A DNA stretch of 64,000 nt from a bacterium (GTDB taxonomy: Bacteria > Auribacterota > Auribacteria > Auribacterales > Auribacteraceae), in the NCBI GenBank assembly GCA_018435605.1, contig JAHDNF010000002.1, positions 324,538 to 388,537 on the forward strand, written 5' to 3'. The translations under genes and the position numbers were made by a program. Under the pieces are notes generated by a model, which was not told the DNA's origin, did no database searches, and saw only the letters and a program-made list of their open reading frames with translations. Numbering within the stretch: position 1 is the stretch's first letter; each line of letters opens with the position of its first letter. Positions 29,300 to 49,464 of this stretch are shown here, piece by piece.

Positions 29300-30166
29300 A
29301 TGATATGCCGGCTTACTTTGTTCATAATGGGGCTTACATTTATAGCTTTAGGATGCGCAACCATGTATAACCCGATGATAACCCAGCCTGAATCATGGAT
29401 CTGTTACTACGGTAAAATCCCTCGGGGGGCATCGCTCAAATCCATTGATTTGGCGATTCTCGATCCGGATAACGTGCCTAATGTTCATAAATACACAAGA
29501 GAAGGGACTATGTGTGTAGGCTATGTGAGTATCGGGGAAGCTGAGGATTACCGCTTTTACTGGAAAAAAATAAAAAATGAAGGCTTCATCATAGCTGAAA
29601 ATGCCGACTGGAAAGGAAACTATTACATCGACCCGCGCAACGAACGATGGAAATCTGTGATTATAGACGAGGTCATCCCAAGGGTACTAAACTGCGGATA
29701 CCATGGTATTTTCATGGATACTCTGGATACAGCGGAATACCTTGAGTGGCTGGATCCGGACAAATACGAAGGTTCTATAGACGCAATGGTAGAACTGGTT
29801 CGAGACATACGGCGGCGATACCCGACAATCATTATGATATCAAATAACGGATACCCGCTTCTATCGCGAATTGCACAGTACATAGACGCCGCGCTGGTCG
29901 AAGACTTGTATACCGCATACGATTTCGCAACAGGCGTTTATGGGTTGCAAGATACAAACATCACCAAAGAAAACCGTCAGATTCTGCACGATATTTCCGC
30001 CCGTTACCGTGTACCTATACTTACACTCGACTATGTACATCCAGACGACAGCACCACAAAGCTATCCATAGAACGTAAAAGCAAGGATAACGGTTTTTTT
30101 CCATACATAGCCGATATAAATTTGGAAGTTTTACCGAGGCAAGTTAAACAGGAAGGTAATAGATGA
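29300..30166 (+). CDS. pelA: PelA hydrolase module: secreted GH114-family glycoside hydrolase
   Basis: N-terminal signal peptide. The VGYVSIGE block and TIM-barrel-like composition are typical of GH114 / the PelA hydrolase domain. Sits at the head of the pel locus. The stop overlaps the next start (ATGA). Confidence 0.7.
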   Translation: MICRLTLFIMGLTFIALGCATMYNPMITQPESWICYYGKIPRGASLKSIDLAILDPDNVPNVHKYTREGTMCVGYVSIGEAEDYRFYWKKIKNEGFIIAENADWKGNYYIDPRNERWKSVIIDEVIPRVLNCGYHGIFMDTLDTAEYLEWLDPDKYEGSIDAMVELVRDIRRRYPTIIMISNNGYPLLSRIAQYIDAALVEDLYTAYDFATGVYGLQDTNITKENRQILHDISARYRVPILTLDYVHPDDSTTKLSIERKSKDNGFFPYIADINLEVLPRQVKQEGNR

Positions 30167-32337
30167 AGAAATTTCTGCATATATACATACTCTTATACAT
30201 ATTTTACGCCTTACAAATTAGCATCTGTACTGCGCAACCGGAGCAATTCGAACGGCGTATTATTGCGCTCTACGACAGCGACGAAGATTCCTCAGCGGAA
30301 AAAACCTTGATTCATGAGCATTGCGAGGTAATTTTGAATCATTTGGGACTTATAGTCGATTACCATGACATTGCATCAGGATTGCCGGACAGCGCAATGA
30401 TGCAAAACTGCCGAGGTATAATCAGTTGGTTTCAGGACGACAATATACCGAATGCATCCGAGTACTTAATTTGGCTCAAAAAACAAATAACCGCGGGTAT
30501 CAAAGTGGTAATATTAGGAAACTTGGGGGCATATTCCGACAGAAACGGGGCTAACATAGAGCTTACAGAACTAAACGAGCTGTTCGATTTGTTCGGCATA
30601 AGCATGTCATATAATGAAACAAAAAATCCTTTTCTCATAGAAGTTGCGTATAAAGATTCTTCAATGATTGAATTTGAAAGATCAATCGACATGGAACTTA
30701 CCTATTACTCGCATTTTACCAAAAAAGACGATTCCATACGCCCATATCTTATCCTGCGGCGGACTGATATCCCAGACAGTGAATCGCCGATGGTTTTTAC
30801 TTGCAAAACGGGAGGTATCGCCACAAGCCCTTATGTATATTATCTTCATCCCAGCACATATCGGACTCAATGGCGAATCGATCCGTTCCGTTTTTTCAAG
30901 GAAAGTTTTGATATAGAGACAGCGCCGGTACCGGACATCACTACTTATTACGGAAGTCGTATGGCATTCAGCCATATCGATGGAGACGCATTTATCAGCT
31001 TATCCATGACTACTCCAAATAAACTGTGCGGACATGTGGTCATAGACGAAATACTCTCAAAATACCCGTTTCCGGTTTCCGTATCTATTGTCGTAGGCGA
31101 AATAATTATTGCCGATAAAAAACCATGGATCAAAGATGTTCAAACAGAATTGATAGAACCTATAAGAAAGATGTTCGAATTACCGAACATTGAGGCGGCG
31201 GCACATGGATATACCCATCCACTGCATTGGGTAAATCAGTTGACTGCCATAGTTGTAGAGGGTTACTCCGAACCAATATCTGCGGATAATATGGACGCCA
31301 TTGAAGATACTGTTTACGAAAGTTTAAGTATGGATATGGCTGTAATAAATGTCTCAAAAGAAGAAATGTTGGATAAGGAAATACTAGGTTCGATCGATTA
31401 TATCAATGCCAATCTAATCACTGAGAATGCCGCACCTGCCGGCACAATGTTTTGGACAGGCGATTGTCTTCCTCCCCATGAAGCGTTAGAGTTGTGCGAG
31501 AATAATAATATTTCATCTATCAACGGCGGAGACCCTTTGTTTGACGAGGAATACAATTCGTATACCAATTTATGCGCCATAAAAAGAGCGTCCAAAGCCG
31601 GATGGCAGTTTTATACCGCCGCATGCAACGAGAATATTTATACAAACCTTTGGCAAGGACCTTATTACGGATTTAAAGACGTAATTGAAACATTCAAACG
31701 AACCGAATCGCCCGTTCGCATCAAACCGGCTAATATCTATTACCATTTTTATTCCGGAGAACGCCACGCATCTGTTGATGCGCTAAAAACCGTGTACGAT
31801 TATGTTATAGAGCAGGATTTTCACCCTATATTCACTTCCAAGTATCTTAAGATCGCCCGCGATTGGTTTGCCACAAAAATTACTATACTTGAGGCGAACA
31901 AAGGATTTCTAATAAGCAACAACGGCGACTGTAGAACAATACGCATCGACAACTGTTTAATTCACCCTGATTTTACCAGAAGTAAGGGTGTAATCGGCTA
32001 CCGACATTATCAGGGTTCGCTATACGCTCATCTGGACGAATCCCCAATCGCCGAACTATGGTTGACCGGCCAATCGTCGGACGATCATCCGTACCTCGTA
32101 TCCTCTACTGGCGAATTGACTGAATTCAATTGCTCAAAAGATTCTATTTCCTTTACCATGAATGGATTCGGCAAAATCAAAATTGAGTTCGCAAAGATGT
32201 ATCCAAATACCGAATATACTGTTGTCATAGATTCCTACACAAATAAAATTTCGTCGGACGATCAGGGCGCATTAAAAGTTGCGTTTCCGTCATATCCTAG
32301 AATAACCAACGCACATGTAAGGATTTCGTCCCGCTAA
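30163..32337 (+). CDS. pelA: PelA deacetylase module: secreted CE4-like polysaccharide deacetylase with extra domains
   Basis: Own signal peptide MKKFLHIYILLYIFYALQISICTA. CE4 motifs HIDGDAF and HGYTHPLH. 724 aa, so it carries additional N- and C-terminal domains as in PelA. Confidence 0.7.
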   Translation: MKKFLHIYILLYIFYALQISICTAQPEQFERRIIALYDSDEDSSAEKTLIHEHCEVILNHLGLIVDYHDIASGLPDSAMMQNCRGIISWFQDDNIPNASEYLIWLKKQITAGIKVVILGNLGAYSDRNGANIELTELNELFDLFGISMSYNETKNPFLIEVAYKDSSMIEFERSIDMELTYYSHFTKKDDSIRPYLILRRTDIPDSESPMVFTCKTGGIATSPYVYYLHPSTYRTQWRIDPFRFFKESFDIETAPVPDITTYYGSRMAFSHIDGDAFISLSMTTPNKLCGHVVIDEILSKYPFPVSVSIVVGEIIIADKKPWIKDVQTELIEPIRKMFELPNIEAAAHGYTHPLHWVNQLTAIVVEGYSEPISADNMDAIEDTVYESLSMDMAVINVSKEEMLDKEILGSIDYINANLITENAAPAGTMFWTGDCLPPHEALELCENNNISSINGGDPLFDEEYNSYTNLCAIKRASKAGWQFYTAACNENIYTNLWQGPYYGFKDVIETFKRTESPVRIKPANIYYHFYSGERHASVDALKTVYDYVIEQDFHPIFTSKYLKIARDWFATKITILEANKGFLISNNGDCRTIRIDNCLIHPDFTRSKGVIGYRHYQGSLYAHLDESPIAELWLTGQSSDDHPYLVSSTGELTEFNCSKDSISFTMNGFGKIKIEFAKMYPNTEYTVVIDSYTNKISSDDQGALKVAFPSYPRITNAHVRISSR

Positions 32338-35300
32338 TGAAAATAGAACTTTGGAAGGTACTTCTCTTTTTCGGACTTATACTTGCGTTAGCTTGCAAGA
32401 TATACCCTAACCATCTTGAGATGGCGGCGTTGTTCGAAAAAAGCAGTATGTATTATATGGCAATTGATGAAGTAGAGCGGGCGCTCAGCCGTCAAGTTGA
32501 TCTGCCTGTCCTTAATCAGGCGGCAAAGTTATATGAAGTGGTGGGTAAAGCGGAAAAATCGATTTATTATTATGACGAGATAATCGCCCGCAACCCTAAA
32601 GACCTTGATGCGCATATCAATCTTGTTCGATTATACCAGTGGAACCGCAAACCAGATTCACTGGTAAAAGAATATGAACGTTTCGTGAGCCGCTTTGTGT
32701 CAACCTCAGAAATTTCGCCTACAGAACTGCCGTACCGAAATGAGGCTTTGACTAATCTGCATAATTTATATTCTGCTCGCGGAAATTGGCCCAAGCTGAT
32801 AGATTTGCTGGAGTTAATATGTGAACTCGGATTAGAAACGGAACAAACCTATATCGACCTGATGGATCTATATGTACGCAAACGCAAAGCGGATATGGCA
32901 ATTTCCACATGCCGAAAAGCACGAGATAAATATCCGGACAGTAAAAGAATACTCGAAAAATCCGCATGGACTACTTATCTGGCCGGCGATCTTGAAACCG
33001 CTACAAGCTCATATTACAAACTCGTCTTTCTCTATTACGACTACAGGGAATCTTGGTTGAATATGATATCGTTTTTGAAAACCACAAAACAAACCGCACG
33101 ACTGGCGGAAATATACGATGATATGCTTCACATATTTTCCCATGATCAAGATACATGTGAATGGCTGGCACATTCGTTTTTTGCAATCGGAGTTTACGAC
33201 AAGGCAATAGAACTTTATACGGGACTGCTCGCAGACAATCCGGATAACCGCAGGCTCAAGCTGGCTTTAGCCGATGCATACGAACAAAGCGAACGCTACG
33301 ACAAAGCTCTTGAGATTTTTATTGCACTGCAAAATAATGTTCATTTCGACCGTCAAATAGAAGAGAATATTATTACATTGCTTTTTCATTTAAAAGATTA
33401 CGATCAGGCACAACAACGGGCAGACGCGCTGATAGCAAGCGATCTCAACGATCACCGTCTTATTTTGAGAATGGCGGATTTATATGAATGGAACAGCCTG
33501 CCAAGTCAAGCCGCTGAATCACTGGAAAAAGCGCTTAAACACAGACCGGACGACTTGGATATCGTCAAACGAACAGCGCGTTTATATCAATGGGCAAACA
33601 ATCAGCACAAGGCTATAGAATATTTCAGCAAGCTCACAACAGCATATCCGGATCAAATAGAATACGGCAAATCTCTGATTTCAGCATATCAATCTTTAAG
33701 CGAAACCGATAAAGCGCGAGACATCGGAATTGCACTTCTCGAACTCCATCCGGATGATACCGAACTTTTACGAATAATGTCATATTTTTATATGGATTCC
33801 AACGACACGGCAAAAGCATACGAAATGCTACTGCGGTACAAAGAATTTCAAGAACCGGACGTCGAAATTGTTCGAAATCTGGCGTGGTTATCTCAAGCAA
33901 CTGGGAATAAACACGAATCAATCGGCTATTACGAAAAACTGATAACCGAGACTGAGCCAAACATAGCTTGGGTGCGGGAACTTGGCAGGTTATACTTAGA
34001 AACGAAACAGACGGATAAGGCTCAGATGCTGATAGAGCAATACAGCCTCCTGCCGGATGAAGATATGCAGTTACAACTGCTCCTTGCGGACATTTATGCA
34101 GACACAAAACAATATGACCGCGCGGTAGATGTCATAGAACCGATTATTGGGAAAACAGATGCGCAAACGCGAGTCACGCTTATTCGCCAGCTTGCCTATC
34201 TGTACATAATGCAGGAAGAATACCGCAAAGCGATCGACTACCTTACGGAAATTCACAGAGAAAATCAAACGGATATGGGCATTGTAGAACAGCTTGCATA
34301 CGCTTACAACAACCTCGGACAACCTGCGCAGGCATTGCATTATTTTAACACTTTCTTGGAGTCTGATCCGGACAACATTCAGGCGCACTACAGCGCAGGA
34401 TACATCAACCTCCAGCTAAAAAAAGACCGGCAGGCGAGAACTCATTTTGTCAAAGCGATAATAGCTTTGAACAGACAACCGCAATCAACCGAAAATTACG
34501 CTATGTACGCACGGCTTTATCATCAGCTCAGACAATACGACCACGCGATCTACTGGTATACATTGGCGATACGCAACGCTCCGGATGATGCTAACCTGTA
34601 TTCGGAATACCTCGGCATGTTACTGGAACTGGAGCTGTATGACCATATCATAACTATGTTCTCAAAAGCGCCTGAGGAAATCAGAGAAACCACATCGGCG
34701 CGGTATTATTTGGCCTTGGCATACGCCGGCACGAAACAGTATGACTCTGCCGTGGAGTTGATGGAGCAGATTATAGCGCAAAACCCCGACAACGGCGATT
34801 ACAATGCTGATTTGGCTTTCATTTTTCAGAAAAAAGGCAGGTGGGATAAATCTATCCAGCTATACGACGATCTTTTGAAACGCCAGCCTCCGTCATGGTC
34901 AAGATATGGAGAAATAGAAAACGAACGTAAATCGATCAAAAAACAATACGCTCCCAAACTTACGGCCGGATTTTTGTTGATCGATGAAATCAAAAAAGAT
35001 ACGCAGGTATACTACTCCAATTTCCAGATGTATCTTTTACACAACCTCCTGCTAAGAACCGGCGTATCGCGGTACTATTTCCACGATGCATCACTCTCTA
35101 ACATACCCAATGTAGATGACCGCCTGACGGAGTACAGCATGGAACTCGAATACTTTTTCGACCGGCACTGGTCTTTAGCTGTAGGCCCGCTGGTTATAAA
35201 CAACAGCACAAAAGATGTGTACTCATTCTCTATGGGACTGCTTTACAATAATTTCGAAAATTTATCCATGTCCGTCAGGTATTCGTTCAGGGACAAGATA

Positions 35301-35867
35301 ATCGACCCGCGCGTAGCCGTACCGCTTGGCGGGACATCCGATCACGTAGACCTAAAGCTAGAGTGGCAGGCGGCTCCGTATATCAGGTTTATGGCTGAAG
35401 GAGTCCACGGGGAATACAATTTCTCATCCGCTGTGCGCCGTATGGGGTTATCTACTAGTCCGGGCTATTATAACCGCATGGTCGCAGGCGCAGACCTGAC
35501 GTTGCTGTACGATCCGCGCATATCTCTGACATACAGATATTACTGGTCTGATTCTCACATGGACCGCGACTACAACCCGCTATTCAATATATCTACAAAA
35601 AATCGTTCTCACCAGTTCGGAATAAGGTGCGAGCAACAGATATCCAACAATATTTTCGTATATGGCACGGGATTTGTTGCTAACGACGACGAACGGGATA
35701 TGTTTCTGTCACGCATGGGACAGTACGGCATTGAGTTCGGTTTGAGGTACGATGTAACTGACAGTATCGAATTAGGCGGCAGTTACACATTTTTCTCCGA
35801 AAAAGGTATTGATTCACAGCCGGGGCGAGCGTCGTACGTCAATATCTTCAGTTCAATTGCCTTTTAA
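32337..35867 (+). CDS. pelB: PelB-like outer-membrane export protein (TPR array plus C-terminal beta-barrel porin)
   Basis: 1176 aa with an N-terminal signal/anchor and ~20 TPR-like repeats. The C-terminal ~300 aa show alternating beta-strand composition and end in a terminal F (...NIFSSIAF). Its start shares 1 nt with the upstream stop. Confidence 0.8.
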   Translation: MKIELWKVLLFFGLILALACKIYPNHLEMAALFEKSSMYYMAIDEVERALSRQVDLPVLNQAAKLYEVVGKAEKSIYYYDEIIARNPKDLDAHINLVRLYQWNRKPDSLVKEYERFVSRFVSTSEISPTELPYRNEALTNLHNLYSARGNWPKLIDLLELICELGLETEQTYIDLMDLYVRKRKADMAISTCRKARDKYPDSKRILEKSAWTTYLAGDLETATSSYYKLVFLYYDYRESWLNMISFLKTTKQTARLAEIYDDMLHIFSHDQDTCEWLAHSFFAIGVYDKAIELYTGLLADNPDNRRLKLALADAYEQSERYDKALEIFIALQNNVHFDRQIEENIITLLFHLKDYDQAQQRADALIASDLNDHRLILRMADLYEWNSLPSQAAESLEKALKHRPDDLDIVKRTARLYQWANNQHKAIEYFSKLTTAYPDQIEYGKSLISAYQSLSETDKARDIGIALLELHPDDTELLRIMSYFYMDSNDTAKAYEMLLRYKEFQEPDVEIVRNLAWLSQATGNKHESIGYYEKLITETEPNIAWVRELGRLYLETKQTDKAQMLIEQYSLLPDEDMQLQLLLADIYADTKQYDRAVDVIEPIIGKTDAQTRVTLIRQLAYLYIMQEEYRKAIDYLTEIHRENQTDMGIVEQLAYAYNNLGQPAQALHYFNTFLESDPDNIQAHYSAGYINLQLKKDRQARTHFVKAIIALNRQPQSTENYAMYARLYHQLRQYDHAIYWYTLAIRNAPDDANLYSEYLGMLLELELYDHIITMFSKAPEEIRETTSARYYLALAYAGTKQYDSAVELMEQIIAQNPDNGDYNADLAFIFQKKGRWDKSIQLYDDLLKRQPPSWSRYGEIENERKSIKKQYAPKLTAGFLLIDEIKKDTQVYYSNFQMYLLHNLLLRTGVSRYYFHDASLSNIPNVDDRLTEYSMELEYFFDRHWSLAVGPLVINNSTKDVYSFSMGLLYNNFENLSMSVRYSFRDKIIDPRVAVPLGGTSDHVDLKLEWQAAPYIRFMAEGVHGEYNFSSAVRRMGLSTSPGYYNRMVAGADLTLLYDPRISLTYRYYWSDSHMDRDYNPLFNISTKNRSHQFGIRCEQQISNNIFVYGTGFVANDDERDMFLSRMGQYGIEFGLRYDVTDSIELGGSYTFFSEKGIDSQPGRASYVNIFSSIAF

Positions 35868-35907
35868 CAAACCGTTGCTATAGAGATTATTTTAAAAGGA
35901 GGCCTGT

Positions 35908-36465
35908 ATGCGTCCGAAAATCGCGGTCTATTTGCTGATTGTCTTATTTTTATACAACGGATGTAACTATTCTCGTCAATTTTCCAAACCGCACATATAC
36001 AGTACGCAACTGGGAACCATGGCCGTATTGCCATTTGACAACAGAACATCACATCCTCAGGCAGGCGCAATCGCCACCGATCTGTTCACTACCGAATTGT
36101 TGAGCAAAAACTGTTTCAATGTAATTACTCCTATTCAGGTTTACGATACGCTCTCGTTGAACCGCATTCTGGACGCTACGGATATTTTGTCGGCACACAG
36201 CATGCAGGAATTGGGAACGCTTTTTGAAGCCGATACGATACTTATAGGGTCGGTCACGGAGTATTACTACAAGAAAGGAATACGCGAAACACCTGTTGTC
36301 GGGCTTGACATAAAGATAGTCGTGACAGTCACCGGCGAAACTATTTGGGCTGAAAGCATAACACGCGAGGAAATAGCTTTTCTTTTTTACCAAGGATCTT
36401 TAAACGAGACTACGCAAAAGCTATGCAGACAACTGATAAACAACCTTAAGAACAATCTGAGATGA
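35908..36465 (+). CDS. pelC: PelC-like small lipoprotein
   Basis: 185 aa. Signal peptide ending LFLYNGC (Cys as lipidation candidate). Size and position match PelC. Confidence 0.6.
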   Translation: MRPKIAVYLLIVLFLYNGCNYSRQFSKPHIYSTQLGTMAVLPFDNRTSHPQAGAIATDLFTTELLSKNCFNVITPIQVYDTLSLNRILDATDILSAHSMQELGTLFEADTILIGSVTEYYYKKGIRETPVVGLDIKIVVTVTGETIWAESITREEIAFLFYQGSLNETTQKLCRQLINNLKNNLR

Positions 36466-36475
36466 AAGGGTCTAT

Positions 36476-36829
36476 GTGAACCGGGCTGTATTACTTGTCG
36501 ATACCGATACATCTTTCGTAAAAATGATTTCAGCATTGCTCGAATTCAACGATTTTTCAGTTATCCGACTGGATGAAAGCGAAAATCTGGCAAATGTATT
36601 GGACAACCAGCCTGTTTCTGTTGTGCTAGCCGATATCATGGCTGGTATGTCTATAGAGGAATTGATGGAAAGTATCGCCGATAAAAGAGAAATTTCCATG
36701 ATCTTGACCGGTATACGCGACTTGAGCAATACGGAACGAAAAAAATTGCTGTCACGTTCCATACCTTTCATAAAAAAACCATGTATGCCTAGTTTGGTAT
36801 GCGATAAGATCAAGAAAATCGTACGATGA
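36476..36829 (+). CDS. Stand-alone CheY-like receiver-domain protein (GTG start) inserted between pelC and pelD
   Basis: REC-fold landmarks present: LLVDTD (D12 kept, D13 to T), VVLAD (phospho-acceptor Asp position), ILTG (Thr), FIKKP (Lys-Pro). AAAGGG lies 8 nt upstream of the GTG. Its stop overlaps the pelD start. Confidence 0.5.
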   Translation: MNRAVLLVDTDTSFVKMISALLEFNDFSVIRLDESENLANVLDNQPVSVVLADIMAGMSIEELMESIADKREISMILTGIRDLSNTERKKLLSRSIPFIKKPCMPSLVCDKIKKIVR

Positions 36830-38214
36830 AGAAAAGCGCTTTTACAATCATAAGCGAAACATGTTTTACTTTTGCCGGATTGGCTGTAGCGAATTATCTT
36901 GGATGGCGTGAATCGCCGGCTTTTTACGGCATAAACCCTCATCCATATTTTGCCGTTATAATCCTTATCGCAACCAGATACGGAACATTAAGCGGTCTGT
37001 TTTCTGCCGGTGTAGCTAGTGTTTCTCTGTGCGCAATTCTTCGTTATTACGCCGGGCAGTCGCCGTCATCAGACCCTATTGTTTTTAAGTTAGTAACATT
37101 ATTTTTCATCACAGGATGGATTGTAGGCGAAATCCGGCAGATGTACATCAACCGTACAAACAGGCTTTGCCGCGAACTGGAACATGAAAAAAACAATGTT
37201 CAAAAACTCACGGAAAAGAACGCACTGCTCGCCAAAGTCAATAAAGAAATGGAACGGCGTATTCTTGACGAAGTATCGACATTTTCCAGCTTGTACGAAA
37301 CCAGCAAACAGCTACAGTCATTCGATATTGAAAAAATATACAGCGCAATTCTTTCCATCCTTGTGCAGTATCTTGAAGCAGACCATTGTTCAGTGTACGT
37401 TTTCGAATCTAACAAACTAATGCTGAAAGAATCTATCGGCGATAGGAAACGTCAGGAAGTCATAACGCTTGATGACGAATCAAATATGATTGCAAGATGC
37501 ATTGTTCGCCGGAAAGTGTACAGCATTCGCGATTTTCTCGAAAACAAAATCACCCCGAATAGTGATCAAGACTACCCCGTTATGACCGCTCCTCTGATAA
37601 AAACCGATGGAACCGTTTTAGGCGCGCTCGTCATAGAGCGGATGCCGTTTTTCAACATTACCGGTTCGTCGTTGAAAATTTTTTCACTCCTTGCAGACTG
37701 GGTCAGCGGAGACCTTGAAAACGCTTTGTATTTTCAAGAGGTACAAAACAAAAACATTCTTGATGAAGTGTTAAATGTATACACGCACCATTACATGCAT
37801 ACCCGTCTGAAACAGGAATTTTACCGCTCAAAACGCTACGGATTACCGCTTTCGATTATACTTATAAAAATACCTGTACTTGAAAAAGCCCCTGTAGATT
37901 GGCAGTTGAACATGTTGAAATTTTTTGCCACAACGCTCAACACATCGCTTCGTCTGACAGATATTGTCACCAGTTACAAAGAATCTATTCAATTTGCCAT
38001 GATCTTGACGATGACAAGTAACGAACAAGCCGGTTTGGCCGTAGAACGTTTGACAAAGATATTTAAAAATCTAGGAATAGACACGATGGACCACGGCAAG
38101 CCGTTAGAGGTTTATTTCGGAATCGGCGGGTTTACGTCGACCATAGAGACTATGGAAGAACTCATCGCGCAAGCAGAGGAAAATATTATACAATGCGTAC
38201 GGCAGGACACATAA
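36826..38214 (+). CDS. pelD: PelD-like c-di-GMP receptor (N-terminal TM segments, GAF, degenerate GGDEF)
   Basis: 462 aa. Hydrophobic N-terminal ~110 aa. The degenerate GGDEF-domain signature RYGLPLSIILIKI sits where RYGGEEF would be. Position and size match PelD. Confidence 0.7.
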   Translation: MKKSAFTIISETCFTFAGLAVANYLGWRESPAFYGINPHPYFAVIILIATRYGTLSGLFSAGVASVSLCAILRYYAGQSPSSDPIVFKLVTLFFITGWIVGEIRQMYINRTNRLCRELEHEKNNVQKLTEKNALLAKVNKEMERRILDEVSTFSSLYETSKQLQSFDIEKIYSAILSILVQYLEADHCSVYVFESNKLMLKESIGDRKRQEVITLDDESNMIARCIVRRKVYSIRDFLENKITPNSDQDYPVMTAPLIKTDGTVLGALVIERMPFFNITGSSLKIFSLLADWVSGDLENALYFQEVQNKNILDEVLNVYTHHYMHTRLKQEFYRSKRYGLPLSIILIKIPVLEKAPVDWQLNMLKFFATTLNTSLRLTDIVTSYKESIQFAMILTMTSNEQAGLAVERLTKIFKNLGIDTMDHGKPLEVYFGIGGFTSTIETMEELIAQAEENIIQCVRQDT

Positions 38215-39218
38215 TCGTAACTACATTAGGATTGACAATCGGTATAGCTTTGCAGGCGGTTATGGTATGCGCACTGCTTAACTTATTGCCGTCAAAAATA
38301 CCCATAATCATACCGGCACTTTGCCATATTGCAGGCAGTTTTTTCGCGGCTACTGTTTATTTTCAGCTAAAAACAGTGTCGCGATACGTCTTTTTCTATT
38401 TATCATTCATCTCCGGATTGATAATGCCGACTGCCGGTATTTTATTTACCGGCGCAATATTTGTATACCGTACAATATGCAACACACAACGTCAGAGCGC
38501 GCAGGATTGGGATGTCGCCCTTGAAGAAAACGAGGTTACGGATACACTACTTACAAAAAATGGTGACGAAAAAGATTTTTTGCTTTCCACCCTTGATCTG
38601 GAATCATTCGCCGATATTCTAAACGGAACTGATCTGAACCTGAAACGAAGCGTAATCGAAAAACTATCGGAAGATGACAAGAAAGACAATATACGGCTTC
38701 TGAGAAAAGCATTGAAAGATCAAGACCCAGAAATACGGTTTTACGCATCAGCCGGCCTGAAAAAAATTGAAGAAAATTTTCAAAAATATCTTATGGCTAT
38801 ACAAAAGAAACTTCAATCCAACCCCGATTCATTCGAAAACAACCTACTGCTCGGCAATGAATATTTTCGATTCGCCCGGTCTGGAATGTTAGACCGCACA
38901 ACAACAAATTTCTATTATGAGCAATCAAGAAAATCACTGGAAAAAGCTGTCTGTCTTGAACGTGACAACGAACAGTCGCTTCTATCGCTTGGCAAAGTCT
39001 ATCTGCAACTGGAAGATTACGACGCGGCGTTGGATTGCCTTGACAAAGCGCATACCTGCAATCCCGAAAACTGGCAGATACTTATCTGGCGATGCGAAGT
39101 ACATTACAGCGCTCGTAAATATGAACGAATTAAAAATGATTGCGCCCAGATATCCAACCTGAATACTCCGTGGGATTCGGTGCGCGATATAACTCAATAT
39201 TGGACAGCTCATGCGTAA
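38193..39218 (+). CDS. pelE: PelE-like inner-membrane TPR protein
   Basis: 341 aa. Two N-terminal TM helices followed by TPR-like repeats. Overlaps pelD by 22 nt. Confidence 0.6.
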   Translation: MRTAGHIIVTTLGLTIGIALQAVMVCALLNLLPSKIPIIIPALCHIAGSFFAATVYFQLKTVSRYVFFYLSFISGLIMPTAGILFTGAIFVYRTICNTQRQSAQDWDVALEENEVTDTLLTKNGDEKDFLLSTLDLESFADILNGTDLNLKRSVIEKLSEDDKKDNIRLLRKALKDQDPEIRFYASAGLKKIEENFQKYLMAIQKKLQSNPDSFENNLLLGNEYFRFARSGMLDRTTTNFYYEQSRKSLEKAVCLERDNEQSLLSLGKVYLQLEDYDAALDCLDKAHTCNPENWQILIWRCEVHYSARKYERIKNDCAQISNLNTPWDSVRDITQYWTAHA

Positions 39219-41175
39219 CGACGAACTTAACAAACTCAAATCTATGATAAACAGCCCCAGTGAAAAACTGCGCGACGAAGGTTTTTCAATTATATCTGTG
39301 TCATGTTCATCTACGGACAAAGAATATCTGTCGTTGATCCGTAGCGAAAACGAAATCGTAAAAATCCGGTTCTTAAAGTTTATCTCCATAAACAATAATT
39401 CACGCGCAGGTTTACAGATAGCCCGGCAATTTCTCGACGATGACAACCCCGAAGTACGCGAACAGGCATTATCCGCATGCGCTGAAATAGAATGTATCGG
39501 AAAAAAAGATTTTATTATCGATCTGCTACAAGGATCAAATGAACATGTCATGGATTATGCCATCCGTGAAGCCGGTAAACGGCGCATGATCGGCGCAATA
39601 GACATTCTTTTCGGAATTTACCGGCGTTCCGATATAAAACGTAAAATATATATTTTAAAAGAACTCCGAAATATTAGAGGAACCTCGTGCATCCCGTGGT
39701 TAATCAAAGAAATGGAAGTAAACGACACCCACTTATTGTATGAGGTATTGCTAACGGTCGGGCTGTTTCATAAATATCTTTCTTGGAACAAATTTATTGT
39801 ATTTTCCGATCATCCCGACCCCGCAATACGCAAAGCGGCTATATGGGCGCTTGGCAACTACCGCATCAAAACCATTCGCAACCGTCTGCTGGATCAATAT
39901 TTTTCCGAATCCGACACAACAGTGCAAAACGAGATAATCACCATACTTGCCCGATACCGCGATAAAAAAATCATGCTGTATTTGCTCGATACTGCCGCCC
40001 ACGGAAAAGAATTCACTATGAGGCTTCTGGCGGAATCGGCTCTGGACAGGTTCCCTAAAAAAATGATCTACGCTTTGGTAAGAAAATACCGTCGGCACAA
40101 AGATGACAGAATACGCGCGGTAATTATGGAAAAAGCAGGCTCTGTGTGCAGTTTCAATTCCACTGCCAAATGGCTTGTAGACGCACTGCGCAACGATCCT
40201 GCAGAACCGGTGCGCGCCATTGCCGCCGAATCGCTGGGCATGGTTTTTGATCATTCCGTAATACCGCATCTGGAACACTCATTTCTATTCGACCAGTCGC
40301 AAACAGTGCGATATACGGCTTTGCTTGCCCTGACCGCTCTATGGCGTGCCGGCGACTGGGAAACTATTCTCAGCATTCTCGAGTTTCCAGAGGATATGTA
40401 CAGCCAGTCTCAGCAGATAATCTTACGCTTTTTACAGAAACGTATATTGCGTGACCATTGGGAATTACCGGAAAAACTTCGCGCACGCATAATGTTCAAT
40501 TTGTATTCCGTAGTTGTAAACATCCGGTATTTGAGCATAGAAATCATCAAAATTATTAATGAGAAAAAGGCAATCGTTCCTCTGATAGATATTTATATGA
40601 AAACCGAAATCGAAGACGAGCGCCTGCTTGTTATCGAGACTATTCAGAAAATCGCATATTCCGACCCTGAATTTCTTTTTTCGTTCATGTTGCAGTCACG
40701 GCATAACGAGCATGTCTTCATAGCGGTCATGGAACTATTTGAAAAAATCCGATTTGCGCCTGAACATTCCTATGAAATGATCTTGCAGTTTTCCGCTTTA
40801 TTCATCAGCGAACGAAAGAAAGATATGAAAAAACGCCTCGCAGTAACCGTAATGAATATTTTCGGGCGTGAATACGAAAACATACCTGAACTGATCGAAC
40901 AAGAAAACTGGAACTGGATTAAAATTATTATGGAATGCGCAAAATATACAGGTCAAAACGAGCTTAAAGTATTCGGGTCGGAGATTTTTCTCAAAAATCT
41001 GAACAATCCTAACGATCAGATGCGGGAAATTGCGGTAATAATGGTTGGCGCTCTGTCGGAAAAAAGGGCTATAGAAACTTTGACCAAACTGGCTATAACA
41101 AACAAATCCATGAAACTGCGCGAACTGGCTAAAATATCTTTGCATCAAATTCTTAACGAGGATACCGCCGCATGA
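39211..41175 (+). CDS. PBS-lyase/HEAT-like repeat protein embedded in the pel operon
   Basis: 654 aa of repeated DPxVRxxAxxALG-type HEAT repeats (DPEVREQALSAC, DPAIRKAAIWALGN, EPVRAIAAESLG, QMREIAVIMVGAL). Its start overlaps pelE by 8 nt and its stop overlaps the pelF start by 4 nt. Confidence 0.6.
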   Translation: MRNDELNKLKSMINSPSEKLRDEGFSIISVSCSSTDKEYLSLIRSENEIVKIRFLKFISINNNSRAGLQIARQFLDDDNPEVREQALSACAEIECIGKKDFIIDLLQGSNEHVMDYAIREAGKRRMIGAIDILFGIYRRSDIKRKIYILKELRNIRGTSCIPWLIKEMEVNDTHLLYEVLLTVGLFHKYLSWNKFIVFSDHPDPAIRKAAIWALGNYRIKTIRNRLLDQYFSESDTTVQNEIITILARYRDKKIMLYLLDTAAHGKEFTMRLLAESALDRFPKKMIYALVRKYRRHKDDRIRAVIMEKAGSVCSFNSTAKWLVDALRNDPAEPVRAIAAESLGMVFDHSVIPHLEHSFLFDQSQTVRYTALLALTALWRAGDWETILSILEFPEDMYSQSQQIILRFLQKRILRDHWELPEKLRARIMFNLYSVVVNIRYLSIEIIKIINEKKAIVPLIDIYMKTEIEDERLLVIETIQKIAYSDPEFLFSFMLQSRHNEHVFIAVMELFEKIRFAPEHSYEMILQFSALFISERKKDMKKRLAVTVMNIFGREYENIPELIEQENWNWIKIIMECAKYTGQNELKVFGSEIFLKNLNNPNDQMREIAVIMVGALSEKRAIETLTKLAITNKSMKLRELAKISLHQILNEDTAA

Positions 41176-42662
41176 GCAGAAGAAGCGATGTCTGTTTGGT
41201 GTTAGAAGGCACATACCCGTACATATCGGGCGGCGTATCGTCGTGGGTACATCAACTTATCTGTGCGCTTAAAGATATCCGGTTTTCGCTGTTGATTCTA
41301 CTGCCAAATCGCGAACATATCCGGGAAATGAAATACAAACTGCCTTCTAATGTGGTCGATATACGTCAGGTATTCATACACGAACACGATCTAGGTAAAC
41401 AGTCGGCAAATTCGTCGCGTGCAAAACAAAAGTTATTCGACGAACTGGAGGAATACGCAAAAGAGCTTATTGCCGGCAATACCACGGTATTCGAAAAAAT
41501 ACAAACCCTGTTCGATACCGACAGGCCGGCGCATCTGACCATACACGACCTGTTGTTTTCACTGCCCAGCTGGGATATGCTTCGCAACATGTACAAACAT
41601 TACAATCTGAACATATCTTTTCTGGATTTTTTCTGGACATTCAGATTCAGCATACTGCCGGTTATTCCTTTGTTCCAAACTGACATACCGGACGCTGAAA
41701 TCTACCATACCGTATCTACAGGCTACGCAGGACTGATAGGGGCAGTCGCCAAAATAAAAAATAATGCCGTTTTGCTTCTGACAGAACACGGTATATACGC
41801 CAAAGAGCGCAAAATGGAAATTGCTCAAGCCTCATGGATTTACGATGAAAAGCAGGCGGACAGCAGGCCTCAGAAAAATATGAGCTTTTTTAAAGAATGG
41901 TGGATTACCATGTTCAACCGCATGGCGCGCTTGTGCTATGAGCATTCGCGTCAGGTTGTTACCTTATACGAGGATAACCGGAAACTCCAGATAGCCGCCG
42001 GAGCGGCGCCCGATTCGTCGATCATAATTCCCAACGGTATTGATGTCAGCAAATTTTCACCTATCGAAAGAACGATCGAATACGGACAGACCCGGTTCAC
42101 CATCGGTTTTGTCGGACGTGTTGTGCCTATAAAAGACGTAAAAACATTTATCAAAGCATGCAAAATAATTGTGGAAAAATTTCCGGAATCAAAAATCCTT
42201 ATTCTCGGTCCGACCGATGAGGAAGAACAATATTACGAAGAATGCGTCAGGCTTTGCGCAATGTTAGATCTGAACGACAACATAACATTTACCGGTATCG
42301 TCCCTGTAAAAGAGTATTACCCGTTAATCGACCTTGTAGTGCTCACCAGTGAAAGCGAAGCGCAACCGCTGGTGATTCTGGAAGCAAACGCCATGGGGAT
42401 ACCCATAGTGTCGTCGGATGTCGGGGCGTGCGACGAGATGCTCAACGGCAGGACTAGCGAAGATAAATCGCTTGGCGCGTCAGGGCTTATAACAGGTGTG
42501 GCAAACCCTCGTGAAACGGCGCAGAGTGTGATAAAAATACTTAGCGACCCGCCCATGTATCATGCAATGAGCAAAGCGGGAATCCAGCGGGTTTATCGGT
42601 TTTACAATCAGGACGACTTGTTCGCCAATTATCTGAATCTATACGAAAAATATTTATATTAA
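41172..42662 (+). CDS. pelF: PelF-like cytoplasmic GT4 glycosyltransferase
   Basis: 496 aa. N-terminus LVLEGTYPYISGGVSSW is typical of PelF. C-terminal GT4 core EAQPLVILEANAMGIPIVSSDVG. Confidence 0.85.
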   Translation: MSRRSDVCLVLEGTYPYISGGVSSWVHQLICALKDIRFSLLILLPNREHIREMKYKLPSNVVDIRQVFIHEHDLGKQSANSSRAKQKLFDELEEYAKELIAGNTTVFEKIQTLFDTDRPAHLTIHDLLFSLPSWDMLRNMYKHYNLNISFLDFFWTFRFSILPVIPLFQTDIPDAEIYHTVSTGYAGLIGAVAKIKNNAVLLLTEHGIYAKERKMEIAQASWIYDEKQADSRPQKNMSFFKEWWITMFNRMARLCYEHSRQVVTLYEDNRKLQIAAGAAPDSSIIIPNGIDVSKFSPIERTIEYGQTRFTIGFVGRVVPIKDVKTFIKACKIIVEKFPESKILILGPTDEEEQYYEECVRLCAMLDLNDNITFTGIVPVKEYYPLIDLVVLTSESEAQPLVILEANAMGIPIVSSDVGACDEMLNGRTSEDKSLGASGLITGVANPRETAQSVIKILSDPPMYHAMSKAGIQRVYRFYNQDDLFANYLNLYEKYLY

Positions 42663-42674
42663 CGGAGTTCATAT

Positions 42675-44057
42675 ATGGCAGGAATAGGGTTTCGCTTACA
42701 GAAATTGCTCAAGGAAGACAGTTACACCGGTCTCTTGAAAGGTTATCTTTTCTCCGCGATAATTTCATCCGGACCGATGCTCACGTCGATAATCTGTATC
42801 GCACTGCTGGGCATTGTCAGTTTGCCTGTACTTTCGTCGGACGATTACCTTCTGTTCCGTTCGACAATAGTACATATATTCGCGTTATCGCTTATTTTCA
42901 CAGGTATGTTTCAGATGATTGTCACGCGCTACCTTGCAGACCGCCTATTTCTAAAAGAACCCGGCAGTCTGATTCCGTGTTACGTGGGATTGCTTGTCAT
43001 TACGGTTATCGGACAATCCGTCTTGGGAAGTATTTTCTTTTACCACGTCGTCCCACAATGGCGATACGTTCTCGTAGCAACCTCGCTGTATGTGACCATA
43101 AGCTGTTTGTGGAATACAATGATTTTTATCAGCGCGACAAAGAATTATATGATCATCGTATGGGGATTTATAATCGGATCGCTGGTCAGTTTTTTCGCTG
43201 GGTATTATCTTGGCGAGCGGTTCGGACTGATAGGGTATCTTCTGGGATTTGAGATCGGGCAGTTCACAATTTTTCAGTTTCTGCTGGCCAGCCTGCTTCG
43301 CGAGTTCGATTTTTTCAAACCGATGGATTTCAATTTTTTACATTATTTCAAAAAATATCCGGAACTGTGCGCCCTCGGATGCGCGATCAATCTGGGTGTA
43401 TGGATTGACAAATTCCTGTTTTGGTTTTCGCCGTACGGCACTCAGATAAAGGGATTTTTTCATAATTGTCCGCTATACGATACCGCGTTTTTTCTGGCGT
43501 ACCTTTCGATTGTGCCCGCATTGTCCATATTCCTCGTGCAGGTGGAAACCAGCTTTTATCATAGATATAGAGATTTCTACGCGCTGATAATTCGCAAAGC
43601 GTCGCTTGAACGTATCGAACAGGCAAAAGAATCTATAATCATCGATCTTAAAGCGAGTATGATGGCTCTTATCAAAGTACAAGGGTTCATCAGCATATTG
43701 ATGTTGATCGGCGCGGTCAACGTGATAACTATAGTAAAACTACAATGGGCGCAACTGTTTATTTTCAAGATCGGACTGCTGTCGGCGTTCCTGCTTATAT
43801 TTTTTCAGTTACTGATAATCATCATGCTGTACTTCGAATTCAGAAAAGAGGCGTTATGGCTGACAGTACTGTTTATGGCTGTAAATATAGCCGCCACGCT
43901 CGCATCCATACACCTCGGGTTCAGATCGTTCGGGTATGGTTTTTTTGCGGCATGTTTTGTTTGTCTGCTCGTAGGATATCTGATTTTCAACCGGAAACTC
44001 GACAATCTCGAGTTTCTCACCTTCGCTTCTCAACCCATCCGAAAAGTGGAAATTTAA
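42675..44057 (+). CDS. pelG: PelG-like polytopic membrane protein
   Basis: 460 aa with ~12 hydrophobic segments. Last gene of the pel block. Confidence 0.7.
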   Translation: MAGIGFRLQKLLKEDSYTGLLKGYLFSAIISSGPMLTSIICIALLGIVSLPVLSSDDYLLFRSTIVHIFALSLIFTGMFQMIVTRYLADRLFLKEPGSLIPCYVGLLVITVIGQSVLGSIFFYHVVPQWRYVLVATSLYVTISCLWNTMIFISATKNYMIIVWGFIIGSLVSFFAGYYLGERFGLIGYLLGFEIGQFTIFQFLLASLLREFDFFKPMDFNFLHYFKKYPELCALGCAINLGVWIDKFLFWFSPYGTQIKGFFHNCPLYDTAFFLAYLSIVPALSIFLVQVETSFYHRYRDFYALIIRKASLERIEQAKESIIIDLKASMMALIKVQGFISILMLIGAVNVITIVKLQWAQLFIFKIGLLSAFLLIFFQLLIIIMLYFEFRKEALWLTVLFMAVNIAATLASIHLGFRSFGYGFFAACFVCLLVGYLIFNRKLDNLEFLTFASQPIRKVEI

Positions 44058-45429: not shown

Positions 45430-45519
45430 ACGGAGAGGGTGGGATTCGAACCCACGGAACACTTTTGATGTTCACACGATTTCCAGTCGTGCACCTTCGG
45501 CCAGCTCAGTCACCTCTCC
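45430..45519 (-). tRNA. tRNA-Ser (anticodon GGA), type II with long variable arm; CCA not encoded
   Basis: Reverse complement reads GGAGAGG...CACGACTGGAAATCGTG...GGGTTCGAATCCCACCCTCTCC-G. The 7-bp acceptor stem pairs. Anticodon loop is CTGGAAA. Long variable arm. GTTCGAATC T-loop. Discriminator G. Confidence 0.85.
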
Positions 45520-45598
45520 GATTAATATCAGATTATAGTTTCGGTATAATACCGCATATAGGTTAGTTTAGTCAATACATATCAGACCGCGCGAAACA

Positions 45599-47130: not shown

Positions 47131-49464
47131 TTATTTGATTTGATCTAGTAAATCCAGCACATCCTGCCTTTCGGGGAATGGGTCTTCACCGGCAAGCTGT
47201 AGCGCTTTTTCAAGGTAATTTTTAGCTTCATCCGGTTTGTTCATATCCATATACATTCTACCGATATGATATTGGATAGACGCGACATTGGGCGCTTTTT
47301 CCCCTGCTTCTTTGACCAGTTCGAAAGCCTGTTTGAAGTTACTGCCCTTTAGATAGATAATCCATCCGAGAGTATCCATTATCGGGCCGTTGCCGGGCAT
47401 AAGTTCGTTGGCTTTGCCGGCATAAGACATGGCTTCTTCGTAATTTTTTTCATGGGATGCGACAAGCCACGCAAGGTTGTTGAGCATAAACGGATGCGTA
47501 TCATTGACTGCTACTCCTTTACGGTACACTTCAATAGCTTTGCCCTCATCGCCGTTTTGCTCGTACATCATACCTAATCTAAAATACGGTTCAGGGGAAG
47601 TGGTGTCTATTTCTATCACCTTAGATAAATACTCGATAGCTTTATCATTATTGCCCTGAGCCATATAAAACGAGCTGAGCGTAAACAATACGTTTGCGTT
47701 TTGCGGTGCTATGTCGTAGGCTTGGATATAAAGATTTTCTGCTTCCTGTTTCTGACCGTCGTTTTCAAGAAAATTCGCGAGCAAAATTATGAAATCGATA
47801 TTTTCAGGATATTGCACCCGTTTGGCTCTTAACAGCTCAAATGCTTTATCTTTATCGCCTTTCAATATAGATATGGATGCCAGCCGTGATATTGAATCTA
47901 TATGACCGGGTCGTAAATCGATGACCTTTTGGAACTGCTCCGCGGCGCTGTCGTATTCTTTCAGATACAACATTGTTATACCCAACCCGTAAATATAGTT
48001 GGGTTCTTCAGGATATTTCTCCGCTCCATTTTCATAGATTTTTTTAGCTTCGTCAAAATTTTTCAAAGCGAGCTGAATATTCGCCAGCGAAAGCGGAATA
48101 ATCGGCGAATCTGGAAACCGCTCATAACCTTCTTTAAGAAGAATCTCGGCTTCTACCAGTTCGTTTTTCATGCGGTGCACAGCGGCCAGTTTGTAATATG
48201 CGTCATGCTCTATGACGCCTCCCTGACGCAACGCCACGATTTCTTTATAATTTTCTTTCGCGCTGTCTAATTTGCCTTGTTCGTTATAAAGATCTGCTAG
48301 ATTGATAAGCGCCTGTAGATTATGCGGATCTCTATCTATAACATTTTTAAGTGTTCTCTCCGCTTCGCTGAATTTCTTCAATTTTCGCAGATTGAACGCA
48401 ATCATTATCTCATTCTGAACGACAAACCCGTTACTTTTACGAATCATTTCACATATCTGAATGCATTTTTCCGGTTCGTTAAGCATTTGATAAGTCATTG
48501 CGATTCTGGATTTTATTTCAGTATTGGTTTTATCGCGTTGTTCGGCTTCGCGAAACTCGTACAATGCTTTATCAAATTGCTCGCTTTCAAGATAATATTC
48601 ACCGAGAATAAAAAAAGAAAGCGCGTTTTCCGGTTCAATCAATTTCGCTTTATTTAGAATCTTCGCCAGTTCGTCTTTTTTGCCGACACTATTGTAAGCC
48701 TGACTCAAAGCGATATACAAGGTATAATCTTTCGGGAATTGATTTAAAGTGCCTTCGAGAATCTCTATGGCTTTTTCTGTTTTCCCGCTCAAAAGATAAG
48801 CCTGCGCCATCACATTACGAGCTTCTTTGGAGTTAGGATTGGAACTAAGCACAATTTCACATTTATCTATGGCGCGCTGATATTCTTTTCGATCAAGGTA
48901 ATAGGAGGCGATGACAATTCGTTCATCTATATTTTGCGTATTGATAATACTTTTTTTGATATGCTCGATAGCGGCTTGTTCGTCGTTCTCGTCAAGATAT
49001 ATATATGTAAGAATCTTATGCGAATCCATATCGGTCGAATTCAGTTCAATAGATTTGTACAGATATTTTTTTGCTTTTTCAGTATCTTTGAGCATGAGGT
49101 AATATATGCGTCCAAGGCGTGCGTATGCCCTGGATTCAGTAGGATCGCGCTTTATTGCCAGTTCAAAGGCTTCTATAGCTTGATCCGCTTGTCCAAGCCC
49201 TTCATAAGCTAAACCTTCCAAAATAGCTACAACCGCGTATTCAGGAAATTCCACACCTAATTGTTTGGCGATAGACAGCACTTTGTAAAAATCTCCTTGA
49301 TTTATAAGCATAATTGCCTGACTGATCCGCTGGTCGAGTTGCCCCTGATCACTTTTTTCTGACATAGCCCGAGGCACGTCCATATGCATAGAAACCGCGA
49401 AAACAGTGGTTGCCAATAAAATCATTAATATAGCGGATACAGTACATCTCATAACTTTGTTCAT
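47131..49464 (-). CDS. Secreted tetratricopeptide-repeat protein
   Basis: 777 aa. N-terminal signal peptide MNKVMRCTVSAILMILLATTVFA, followed by ~18 TPR units. Confidence 0.7.
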   Translation of the reverse strand: MNKVMRCTVSAILMILLATTVFAVSMHMDVPRAMSEKSDQGQLDQRISQAIMLINQGDFYKVLSIAKQLGVEFPEYAVVAILEGLAYEGLGQADQAIEAFELAIKRDPTESRAYARLGRIYYLMLKDTEKAKKYLYKSIELNSTDMDSHKILTYIYLDENDEQAAIEHIKKSIINTQNIDERIVIASYYLDRKEYQRAIDKCEIVLSSNPNSKEARNVMAQAYLLSGKTEKAIEILEGTLNQFPKDYTLYIALSQAYNSVGKKDELAKILNKAKLIEPENALSFFILGEYYLESEQFDKALYEFREAEQRDKTNTEIKSRIAMTYQMLNEPEKCIQICEMIRKSNGFVVQNEIMIAFNLRKLKKFSEAERTLKNVIDRDPHNLQALINLADLYNEQGKLDSAKENYKEIVALRQGGVIEHDAYYKLAAVHRMKNELVEAEILLKEGYERFPDSPIIPLSLANIQLALKNFDEAKKIYENGAEKYPEEPNYIYGLGITMLYLKEYDSAAEQFQKVIDLRPGHIDSISRLASISILKGDKDKAFELLRAKRVQYPENIDFIILLANFLENDGQKQEAENLYIQAYDIAPQNANVLFTLSSFYMAQGNNDKAIEYLSKVIEIDTTSPEPYFRLGMMYEQNGDEGKAIEVYRKGVAVNDTHPFMLNNLAWLVASHEKNYEEAMSYAGKANELMPGNGPIMDTLGWIIYLKGSNFKQAFELVKEAGEKAPNVASIQYHIGRMYMDMNKPDEAKNYLEKALQLAGEDPFPERQDVLDLLDQIK

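Follow-up and report, generated by a model that had tools for sequence, protein, structure and literature searches.

The stretch considered here, called the window below, comprises 64,000 nucleotides (nt) of contig JAHDNF010000002.1 (assembly GCA_018435605.1), which belongs to a metagenome-assembled genome (MAG) of "Candidatus Auribacterota," a phylum in the PVC (Planctomycetes-Verrucomicrobia-Chlamydiae) group. From 29300 to 44057, its plus strand carries a complete-looking cluster of pel genes. Pel is among the most widespread of the bacterial biofilm polysaccharides, and how its four-protein inner membrane synthase is assembled and switched on is unknown (PMC8461298). Between pelE and pelF, the cluster contains an additional gene coding for a 654-amino-acid (aa) protein made up of HEAT repeats; a second additional gene, which is absent from the preliminary description of this DNA, lies upstream of pelD and codes for a CheY-like receiver domain standing alone. 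The analyses below lend good support to the HEAT protein being a dedicated accessory of the Pel system, and they tilt the balance modestly toward a role as a cytoplasmic scaffold, docked on PelE, that would position or gate the glycosyltransferase PelF.

The pel cluster and the HEAT protein

The genes of the cluster, with the evidence that identifies them, are as follows (TM, transmembrane; ORF, open reading frame).

29300..30166, plus strand: hydrolase portion of PelA, encoded as a separate gene (288 aa; GH114, PF03537, E=8.7e-21)
30163..32337, plus strand: putative C-terminal portion of PelA, encoded as a separate gene (724 aa; a DUF2194 match is found only in the closest orthologue, that of locus L001)
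32337..35867, plus strand: pelB-like gene (1176 aa; rich in TPRs, with strong Pfam TPR matches)
35908..36465, plus strand: pelC-like gene for a small lipoprotein (185 aa; weak CsgG, GNA1162-like, and LpoB matches; flanked by pelB and the receiver gene; conserved throughout L001-L010)
36476..36829, plus strand: gene for the CheY-like single-domain receiver (117 aa; GTG start; PF00072 match below threshold)
36826..38214, plus strand: pelD (TM region, GAF domain of the GAF_3 type, and degenerate GGDEF domain; RxxD I-site kept as RLTD)
38193..39218, plus strand: pelE-like gene (341 aa; N-terminal TM helices, HEAT-like repeat pair at residues 130-197, and TPR)
39211..41175, plus strand: gene for the HEAT-repeat protein (654 aa; ATG start; ORF listing, Pfam, AlphaFold2 [AF2] model, and family and context evidence)
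41172..42662, plus strand: pelF, coding for a GT4 glycosyltransferase (DUF3492, 4.5e-85, with Glycos_transf_1; NCBIfam PelF equivalog model, 514.9 bits against a threshold of 100)
42675..44057, plus strand: pelG, coding for a polytopic membrane protein (PF16933 over the full length, E=1.2e-134; nine hydrophobic segments)

Judged by its predicted proteins, the locus qualifies as a Pel system on each of the core criteria that we tested (PelF, PelG, PelD, and PelE), and it has the same core genes in the same order as the canonical PelD-PelE-PelF-PelG system of Pseudomonas aeruginosa (Whitfield et al. 2020, as related in PMC8461298 and PMC8892547). In those accounts, as in the window, PelD combines a GAF domain with a degenerate GGDEF domain bearing the RxxD motif, PelE combines TM segments with helical repeats, and PelF is soluble; the P. 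aeruginosa PelD, PelE, and PelG proteins are described as a membrane complex that recruits PelF, with a mode of activation that is given as unknown (PMC8461298). The RLTD motif of the window PelD, which relatives also conserve, lies upstream of the degenerate GGDEF position, so that an input from cyclic di-GMP (c-di-GMP) appears to be retained. Unlike the P. aeruginosa system, that of the window adds the HEAT protein and the receiver and has PelA split in two, whereas in the operon as those sources relate it pelE directly abuts pelF and neither extra gene figures. The split of PelA into a GH114 gene and an overlapping 724-aa gene is also seen in L001 and in Deltaproteobacteria-type loci. PelD, PelE, PelF, and PelG are present in the window at normal sizes, as are the likely counterparts of PelA (as two genes), PelB, and PelC; as no component appears to be missing or truncated, the HEAT protein represents an addition to the system and not a replacement, contrary to the preliminary suggestion that it might stand in for a missing accessory.

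The gene for the HEAT protein is interlocked with both of its neighbors. Its ATG (39211-39213) precedes the TAA of pelE (39216-39218), giving an 8-nt overlap (ATGCGTAA), and its TGA (41173-41175) shares a 4-nt overlap (ATGA) with the start codon of pelF (41172-41174); the ORF, at exactly this position and length, and both overlaps are as the preliminary description had them. Across the 31 loci compared, an overlap of the pelE stop with the start of the HEAT gene is usual, and an overlap of 4 or 8 nt between the HEAT gene stop and the pelF start is found in at least 23; these overlaps are kept across phyla. On this evidence, cotranslation of the HEAT protein with PelE and PelF, from reading frames that overlap, is predicted. 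In comparison with the closest relative, the nonsynonymous divergence (pN) was 0.16 for the HEAT protein, 0.14 for PelD, 0.21 for PelE, 0.09 for PelF, and 0.07 for PelG; as the synonymous divergence (pS) is saturated in these comparisons, at 0.72-0.80 (~0.75), only the relative pN values are usable. The same ranking of the Pel proteins and the HEAT protein by divergence persists out to 20% identity, and, as far as these alignments tell, the HEAT gene is under constraint similar to that acting on the scaffold-type Pel proteins.

The general caution that is due to any long ORF, along with the antisense ORFs of 138-189 aa that overlap this region, might be held to favor a chance ORF or an annotation artifact. 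This explanation is already refuted by the conservation of the ORF over its full length, at identities down to ~20%, in more than 30 loci representing several phyla and by the conjunction of saturated synonymous with low nonsynonymous divergence; the confident predicted fold and the conserved overlaps with neighboring genes speak against it too, and we assign it a vanishingly small probability. The antisense ORFs themselves, located on the minus strand opposite the pelE and HEAT genes at 38982-39551 (189 aa), 39751-40278 (175 aa), and 40798-41214 (138 aa), probably owe their existence to the conserved frame on the sense strand. Scans for promoters (37 against 39 expected) and terminators (18 against 16) were both at the level of shuffled sequence and hence uninformative.

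A Pfam scan related the HEAT protein only to families of the HEAT/Arm type, including HEAT_2 (PF13646), which matches five stretches (112.3 bits against a cutoff of 27.7; E=1.3e-32), HEAT (E=9e-19), and HEAT_EZ. An AF2 model computed from a four-sequence alignment is all-α, with ~41 helices and no strands (mean predicted local distance difference test score [pLDDT], 84.9; predicted template modeling score [pTM], 0.62), its confidence being lower at residues ~560-620 (pLDDT, 54-69). The top Foldseek matches of this model in the PDB were all HEAT scaffolds (SF3B1, karyopherin-beta2, importin-beta, the PP2A A subunit, and CAND1). The protein has in common with these eukaryotic proteins an extended superhelix of paired helices, which in the latter carries partners on its surface, but the template modeling (TM) scores of 0.25-0.4 and identities of 10-13% denote a likeness of fold class and do not imply family membership. 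A search of the sequence profile against all PDB chains returned only artificial consensus alphaRep proteins. In a 19-residue hydropathy scan, the HEAT protein, PelF, and the receiver all lacked membrane segments, and the N terminus of the HEAT protein is not signal peptide-like; given the lack of both features, the protein is expected to be cytoplasmic. Taken with the structural model, this leads us to expect a soluble cytoplasmic α-solenoid with ~20 HEAT-like repeats. The residues conserved throughout the family, i.e., R207, Y368, Q402, the N437-x-R439-Y440 motif, and a number of leucines, lie mostly in the N-terminal ~450 positions, and no conserved His, Cys, or acidic set is found among them.

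The preliminary description had termed this a PBS-lyase/HEAT-repeat protein, of which the HEAT half holds and the PBS-lyase half does not: the protein scores 19.8 bits with the PBS-lyase model PF03130, against a cutoff of 20.9, and 42.6 with the NCBIfam NblB model, against a threshold of 300. With the cyanobacterial CpcE/CpcF and NblB proteins (PF03130) it shares a common short prokaryotic type of HEAT-like repeat (HEAT_2/HEAT_PBS). Unlike these, it is ~3 times longer, falls below the respective thresholds, has no conserved residues of catalytic type, and occurs in a member of Auribacterota, not a cyanobacterium, with pel genes as its only neighbors and no phycobilisome context. Nevertheless, that similarity, together with the conserved polar residues listed above, which are of the kind seen in sugar and nucleotide binding, could be taken to indicate a PBS-lyase-like or hydroxylase-like enzyme, or else a protein that binds the UDP-sugar or the nascent chain, which would modify or guide Pel on the cytoplasmic side. 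The absence of a conserved His, Cys, or acidic set suited to metal binding or catalysis argues against an enzymatic role, as do the sub-threshold scores and the finding that the PDB matches are limited to alphaRep in sequence and to nonenzymatic scaffolds in fold. We accordingly reject the identification as a PBS-lyase and regard this class of functions as very improbable.

Distribution of the HEAT family and its association with the receiver

A word-indexed search with the HEAT protein retrieved four other clusters, at 73, 70, 64, and 44% identity, and gave the impression of a tiny family confined to Auribacterota. This was overturned by an exhaustive profile search and by a survey anchored on PelF. 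The former covered 1.84 billion representatives; among the best 150 matches, which were those used, 56 are proteins of 600-700 aa, with the remainder including generic giant HEAT proteins. Most of the 56 align over a single collinear stretch beginning near residue 5, and an iterated hidden Markov model (HMM) of the family recruits all of them, along with every ORF in the pelE-pelF slot of the loci that we collected, at more than 50% profile coverage. The slot proteins of the Bdellovibrionota type, which are the most divergent, were still recovered collinearly when kept out of the profile (E=6e-16 to 2e-44). The window protein gives a collinear, full-length match to the family profile and falls in its size class of ~640-675 aa. 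A profile search with a diverse alignment of 19 sequences was swamped by generic HEAT matches and added nothing; a scan of metagenomes with a tighter alignment of the distant subfamily yielded 3 loci. Neither Pfam nor NCBIfam holds a model specific to this large family of ~650-aa proteins of the pel slot, and we found no paper or model in either resource that describes the HEAT protein as a part of Pel, in keeping with the preliminary view of it as a candidate new component.

For the PelF-anchored survey, one genome per GTDB species was scanned with the window PelF, which produced 53 loci. A family member of 638-675 aa is situated between pelE and pelF in 18 of them, and these loci are labeled Auribacterota, Omnitrophota, Spirochaetales, Bacteriovoracales/Bdellovibrio, or unclassified; overall, carriers were found in Auribacterota, Omnitrophota, Spirochaetales, Bdellovibrionota-type genomes, and Deltaproteobacteria MAGs. 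In loci from Aquificota, Arcobacter, Caldatribacterium, Caldithrix, and Acidobacteria, pelE directly abuts pelF, and in those from Myxococcota a ~340-aa ORF, taken as pelE, does so. All of the PelF-anchored carriers fall within one PelF clade in a neighbor-joining tree, and the canonical pel loci outside that clade are devoid of the HEAT gene. Nested in the clade is a branch (L014, L016, and L019-L021, from Caldithrix, a Deltaproteobacteria MAG, and Myxococcota) that has neither the HEAT gene nor the receiver, which suggests a joint secondary loss, the tree being one without support values. Presence throughout one PelF clade and absence outside it is the pattern expected for a lineage-specific subunit; the anticipated recurrence of the gene in orthologous pel loci thus holds for this one large clade and fails for the canonical loci beyond it.

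A second set of loci was anchored on the HEAT protein, its members being chosen without reference to pel: four close relatives, the three loci of the metagenome scan, five members of the distant subfamily, and three of other subfamilies. With one duplicate contig removed, the set comprised 13 independent loci, in all 13 of which the gene lies between pelE and pelF within a pel cluster. Among the members whose context was read, none was found outside a pel locus. The occupation of this slot in every readable locus, the overlaps retained across phyla, and the fusion to PelE described below agree with the preliminary proposal of an accessory outside the PelA-G set that is expressed with its neighbors, and we consider it well supported, with a high degree of confidence, that the HEAT protein is a dedicated Pel accessory.

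Two sets of loci have unusual gene structures. In L005 (ENA contig_65), pelE, the HEAT gene, pelF, and pelG are each broken into several short ORFs on one contig, most likely as a result of assembly indel errors and not of pseudogenization. In L053-L056, which are of the Kryptonia/Bacteroidota type, there are two adjacent PelF-matching ORFs (e.g., 6001-7212 and 7213-8763 in L054), which may be a split or tandemly duplicated PelF-like pair; a GH114 gene lies directly upstream, and our scripted annotation detected no PelD, PelE, or PelG in these loci.

In nearly all carriers of the HEAT gene, the ORF directly upstream of pelD, with a length of 115-134 aa, is a PF00072 receiver. Among the loci in which the two junctions can be seen, 24 have both genes, two (L013 and L026) have the HEAT gene only, and none has the receiver only; both genes are present in L018 upon reannotation, and later look-ups added four further loci with both. 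The two thus appear to be nearly always co-inherited. The window receiver scores 25.9 bits with PF00072, below the Pfam gathering score of 30.2, and receivers at the orthologous position in other clades score 58-80 bits. An active-site alignment showed that the window receiver has D13 replaced by Thr and T87 by Gly, with D12, D57, and K109 kept. In its clade, the equivalent of D13 is T, S, N, or L and Gly takes the place of T87; K109 is kept, as is D57 apart from a Glu in L009. The receivers of the Deltaproteobacteria, Bdellovibrionota, and Spirochaetales types retain all five CheY signature residues (DD-D-T/S-K).

These observations bear on the tentative alternative that the HEAT protein is mainly a signal adaptor, with the receiver, either phosphorylated or, in Auribacterota, constitutively "locked," reshaping the solenoid and switching PelF activity or Pel export. 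Such a two-component input would be layered on c-di-GMP, and the idea overlaps the scaffold reading without being exclusive of it. It would account for the joint gain and loss of the two genes, including their common absence from the L014/L016/L019-L021 branch, and for the intact CheY residues and clear PF00072 scores of the receivers in the three lineages just named. Moreover, a receiver with no output domain must act by binding a partner, and HEAT solenoids are flexible scaffolds that wrap around ligands. However, no kinase gene adjoins the pel locus in the window and no histidine kinase is encoded near it, the acidic pocket of the receivers of the window clade is degenerate, and L013 and L026 have the HEAT gene with no visible receiver. 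The receiver gene, in addition, adjoins pelD and not the HEAT gene, which makes PelD an equally possible target. We therefore view this alternative as doubtful.

PelE and its natural fusion to the HEAT protein

The window PelE has two to three hydrophobic segments in residues 14-84 and a TPR_1 match at residues 263-293. The HEAT-like repeat pair at its residues 130-197 gives a sub-threshold match to Pfam HEAT_2 (22.6 bits) and aligns with residues 124-191 of the HEAT protein as well as with generic HEAT proteins (hhalign probability, 92.8%; 68 columns; 12% identity). An origin of the HEAT gene by duplication of pelE was considered and set aside, a single match of one generic repeat pair not being enough to support it. 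PelE orthologues from Deltaproteobacteria-type loci have weak HEAT_2 matches in place of the TPR.

A more direct connection between the two proteins is provided by P0110, a protein of 1029 aa whose residues 9-332 are collinear with the window PelE (E=2e-26) and whose residues 379-1019 match the HEAT family profile from end to end (independent E value, 3.7e-90). Its gene (7001-10090 in L066) fills the combined pelE and HEAT slot of a complete variant pel locus with the order PelB, a 311-aa protein, receiver, PelD, fusion protein, PelF, and PelG, and the PelE-HEAT fusion is seen on 4 contigs. The PelD (529 aa) and PelF (556 aa) of L066 are longer than usual. P0155 (1046 aa) was considered as a second fusion and rejected: it is a BlaR1/M56-like membrane protein whose HEAT repeats are generic, and it does not belong to L032.

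The fusion constitutes evidence, of the Rosetta-stone type, for joint action of PelE and the HEAT protein on one and the same side of the membrane. As the HEAT protein in its unfused form lacks an export signal, the shared side should be the cytoplasm. The fusion provides independent evidence on the location of the PelE repeat domain, on which published models differ, with one review drawing the TPR module of PelE in the periplasm (PMC8892547). With regard to the preliminary idea that the HEAT protein bridges PelD, PelE, and PelG with PelF, the link to PelE is the part that the fusion bears out; the rest of the bridge is conjectural.

The same evidence helps in weighing a further possibility, that the HEAT protein serves as a chaperone for assembly or stability, which would bind nascent PelE and/or PelF cotranslationally and aid in building the complex without belonging to the functioning machine. 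Close translational coupling to the genes on either side, divergence that is faster than that of PelF and PelG, and the ability of canonical systems to manage without such a protein are all features that a chaperone might display. Nevertheless, its covalent fusion to PelE in one lineage argues for a permanent association, and the protein equals the largest cytoplasmic component in size, with a length strictly kept at 638-675 aa across phyla, which points to a defined architectural role. On balance, we deem a chaperone improbable.

Outside the pel cluster, the window contains a tRNA-Ser(GGA) at 45430-45520 and, downstream on the minus strand, genes for a 777-aa all-TPR protein (47131-49464) and an 851-aa radical-SAM/DUF2344 protein (51242-53797). 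At the opposite end, a single stop-free frame of at least 8,496 codons occupies 3-25490 on the minus strand and runs off the start of the window; its likely start is near 25400 and is signal peptide-like. Pfam searches over ~8,400 residues of this giant frame were empty except for a HAD-like Hydrolase_3 stretch, leaving it essentially unannotatable.

Proposed role of the solenoid and comparison with other synthases

On the basis of the above evidence, we favor, with confidence slightly above even, the reading in which the HEAT protein serves the complex as a scaffold on the cytoplasmic side, bound to PelE and positioning or gating PelF. The N-terminal end of the solenoid would contact PelE, a membrane protein, at its soluble domain of helical repeats, a predicted docking that is supported by the natural fusion. 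The long repeat surface would then constitute a platform by which soluble PelF could be held and positioned at the PelD/PelE/PelG membrane complex. From its co-inheritance with the HEAT gene, we infer that the receiver may act through the solenoid or through PelD and may thereby affect Pel output; as it accompanies the HEAT gene in most lineages, the solenoid would be the most plausible docking site at which a two-component signal could join the c-di-GMP signal that PelD reads.

Several points weigh against this scaffold reading. We infer the contact with PelF only from the adjacency of the genes and their conserved ATGA overlap. The C-terminal ~200 residues of the HEAT protein are poorly conserved and modeled with lower confidence, and hence any conserved interface must be situated in the N-terminal ~450 residues. 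If the periplasmic placement of the PelE TPR module (PMC8892547) is valid here, docking on PelE fails. Canonical Pel systems work without the HEAT protein, which is thus not indispensable for Pel synthesis in general. As for the receiver, two carriers of the HEAT gene have none that is visible, and that of the window clade is without the equivalents of D13 and T87, so that control through phosphorylation may be absent from this organism.

In functional terms, the closest analogy is with the BcsE-BcsQ-BcsR "vestibule" of Escherichia coli-type cellulose synthases, which likewise consists of lineage-specific cytoplasmic subunits that are thought to stabilize and regulate the synthase (PMC8892547). 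The degenerate receiver domain of BcsE (PMC8892547) is reminiscent of the atypical receiver of the window. The differences, however, are considerable: BcsE has a REC*-GGDEF* architecture and BcsQ is a SIMIBI ATPase, none of the Bcs accessories is a HEAT solenoid, and the signal in Bcs is c-di-GMP plus ATP and not a separate CheY-like protein. The Bcs accessories and the HEAT protein would be expected to be unrelated in both sequence and fold, the resemblance being one of function. Other variants of the Pel system itself offer a different kind of precedent: the Gram-positive pelDEA(DA)FG operon loses the outer membrane parts (PMC7112168), and operons with the pelX epimerase add an enzyme for precursor supply (bioRxiv 10.1101/2020.05.26.111013), both being without a cytoplasmic repeat scaffold or a receiver. 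These variants attest to the lineage-specific gain, loss, and splitting of Pel components and show that extra genes adjacent to pel can be true Pel factors. A large survey of pel operons mentions neither HEAT proteins nor response regulators (PMC7112194), and our full-text searches retrieved, among the papers that were searchable, none in which pel is connected with HEAT repeats or with a gene for a receiver.

The analysis thus defines a large and phylogenetically broad variant of the Pel system, present in numerous uncultured bacteria, with two extra cytoplasmic parts, neither of which is covered by any paper or curated family model that we found. It follows that conserved components escape operon surveys restricted to the seven genes of P. 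aeruginosa. The solenoid is a concrete candidate for the element that holds soluble PelF at the membrane, and the receiver suggests phosphorylation signaling that would act directly on an exopolysaccharide synthase complex, beside c-di-GMP. A more speculative proposal, which we put forward only tentatively, is that the two additional proteins form a control module, wherein the PelE-anchored solenoid holds PelF and the receiver, phosphorylated by a kinase encoded at a distant site, binds the solenoid and gates polymerization. If this is true, the PelE-HEAT fusion would settle the disputed topology of the soluble domain of PelE as cytoplasmic, and it would be at the enzyme complex, and not at transcription, that Pel output combines c-di-GMP with a two-component signal.

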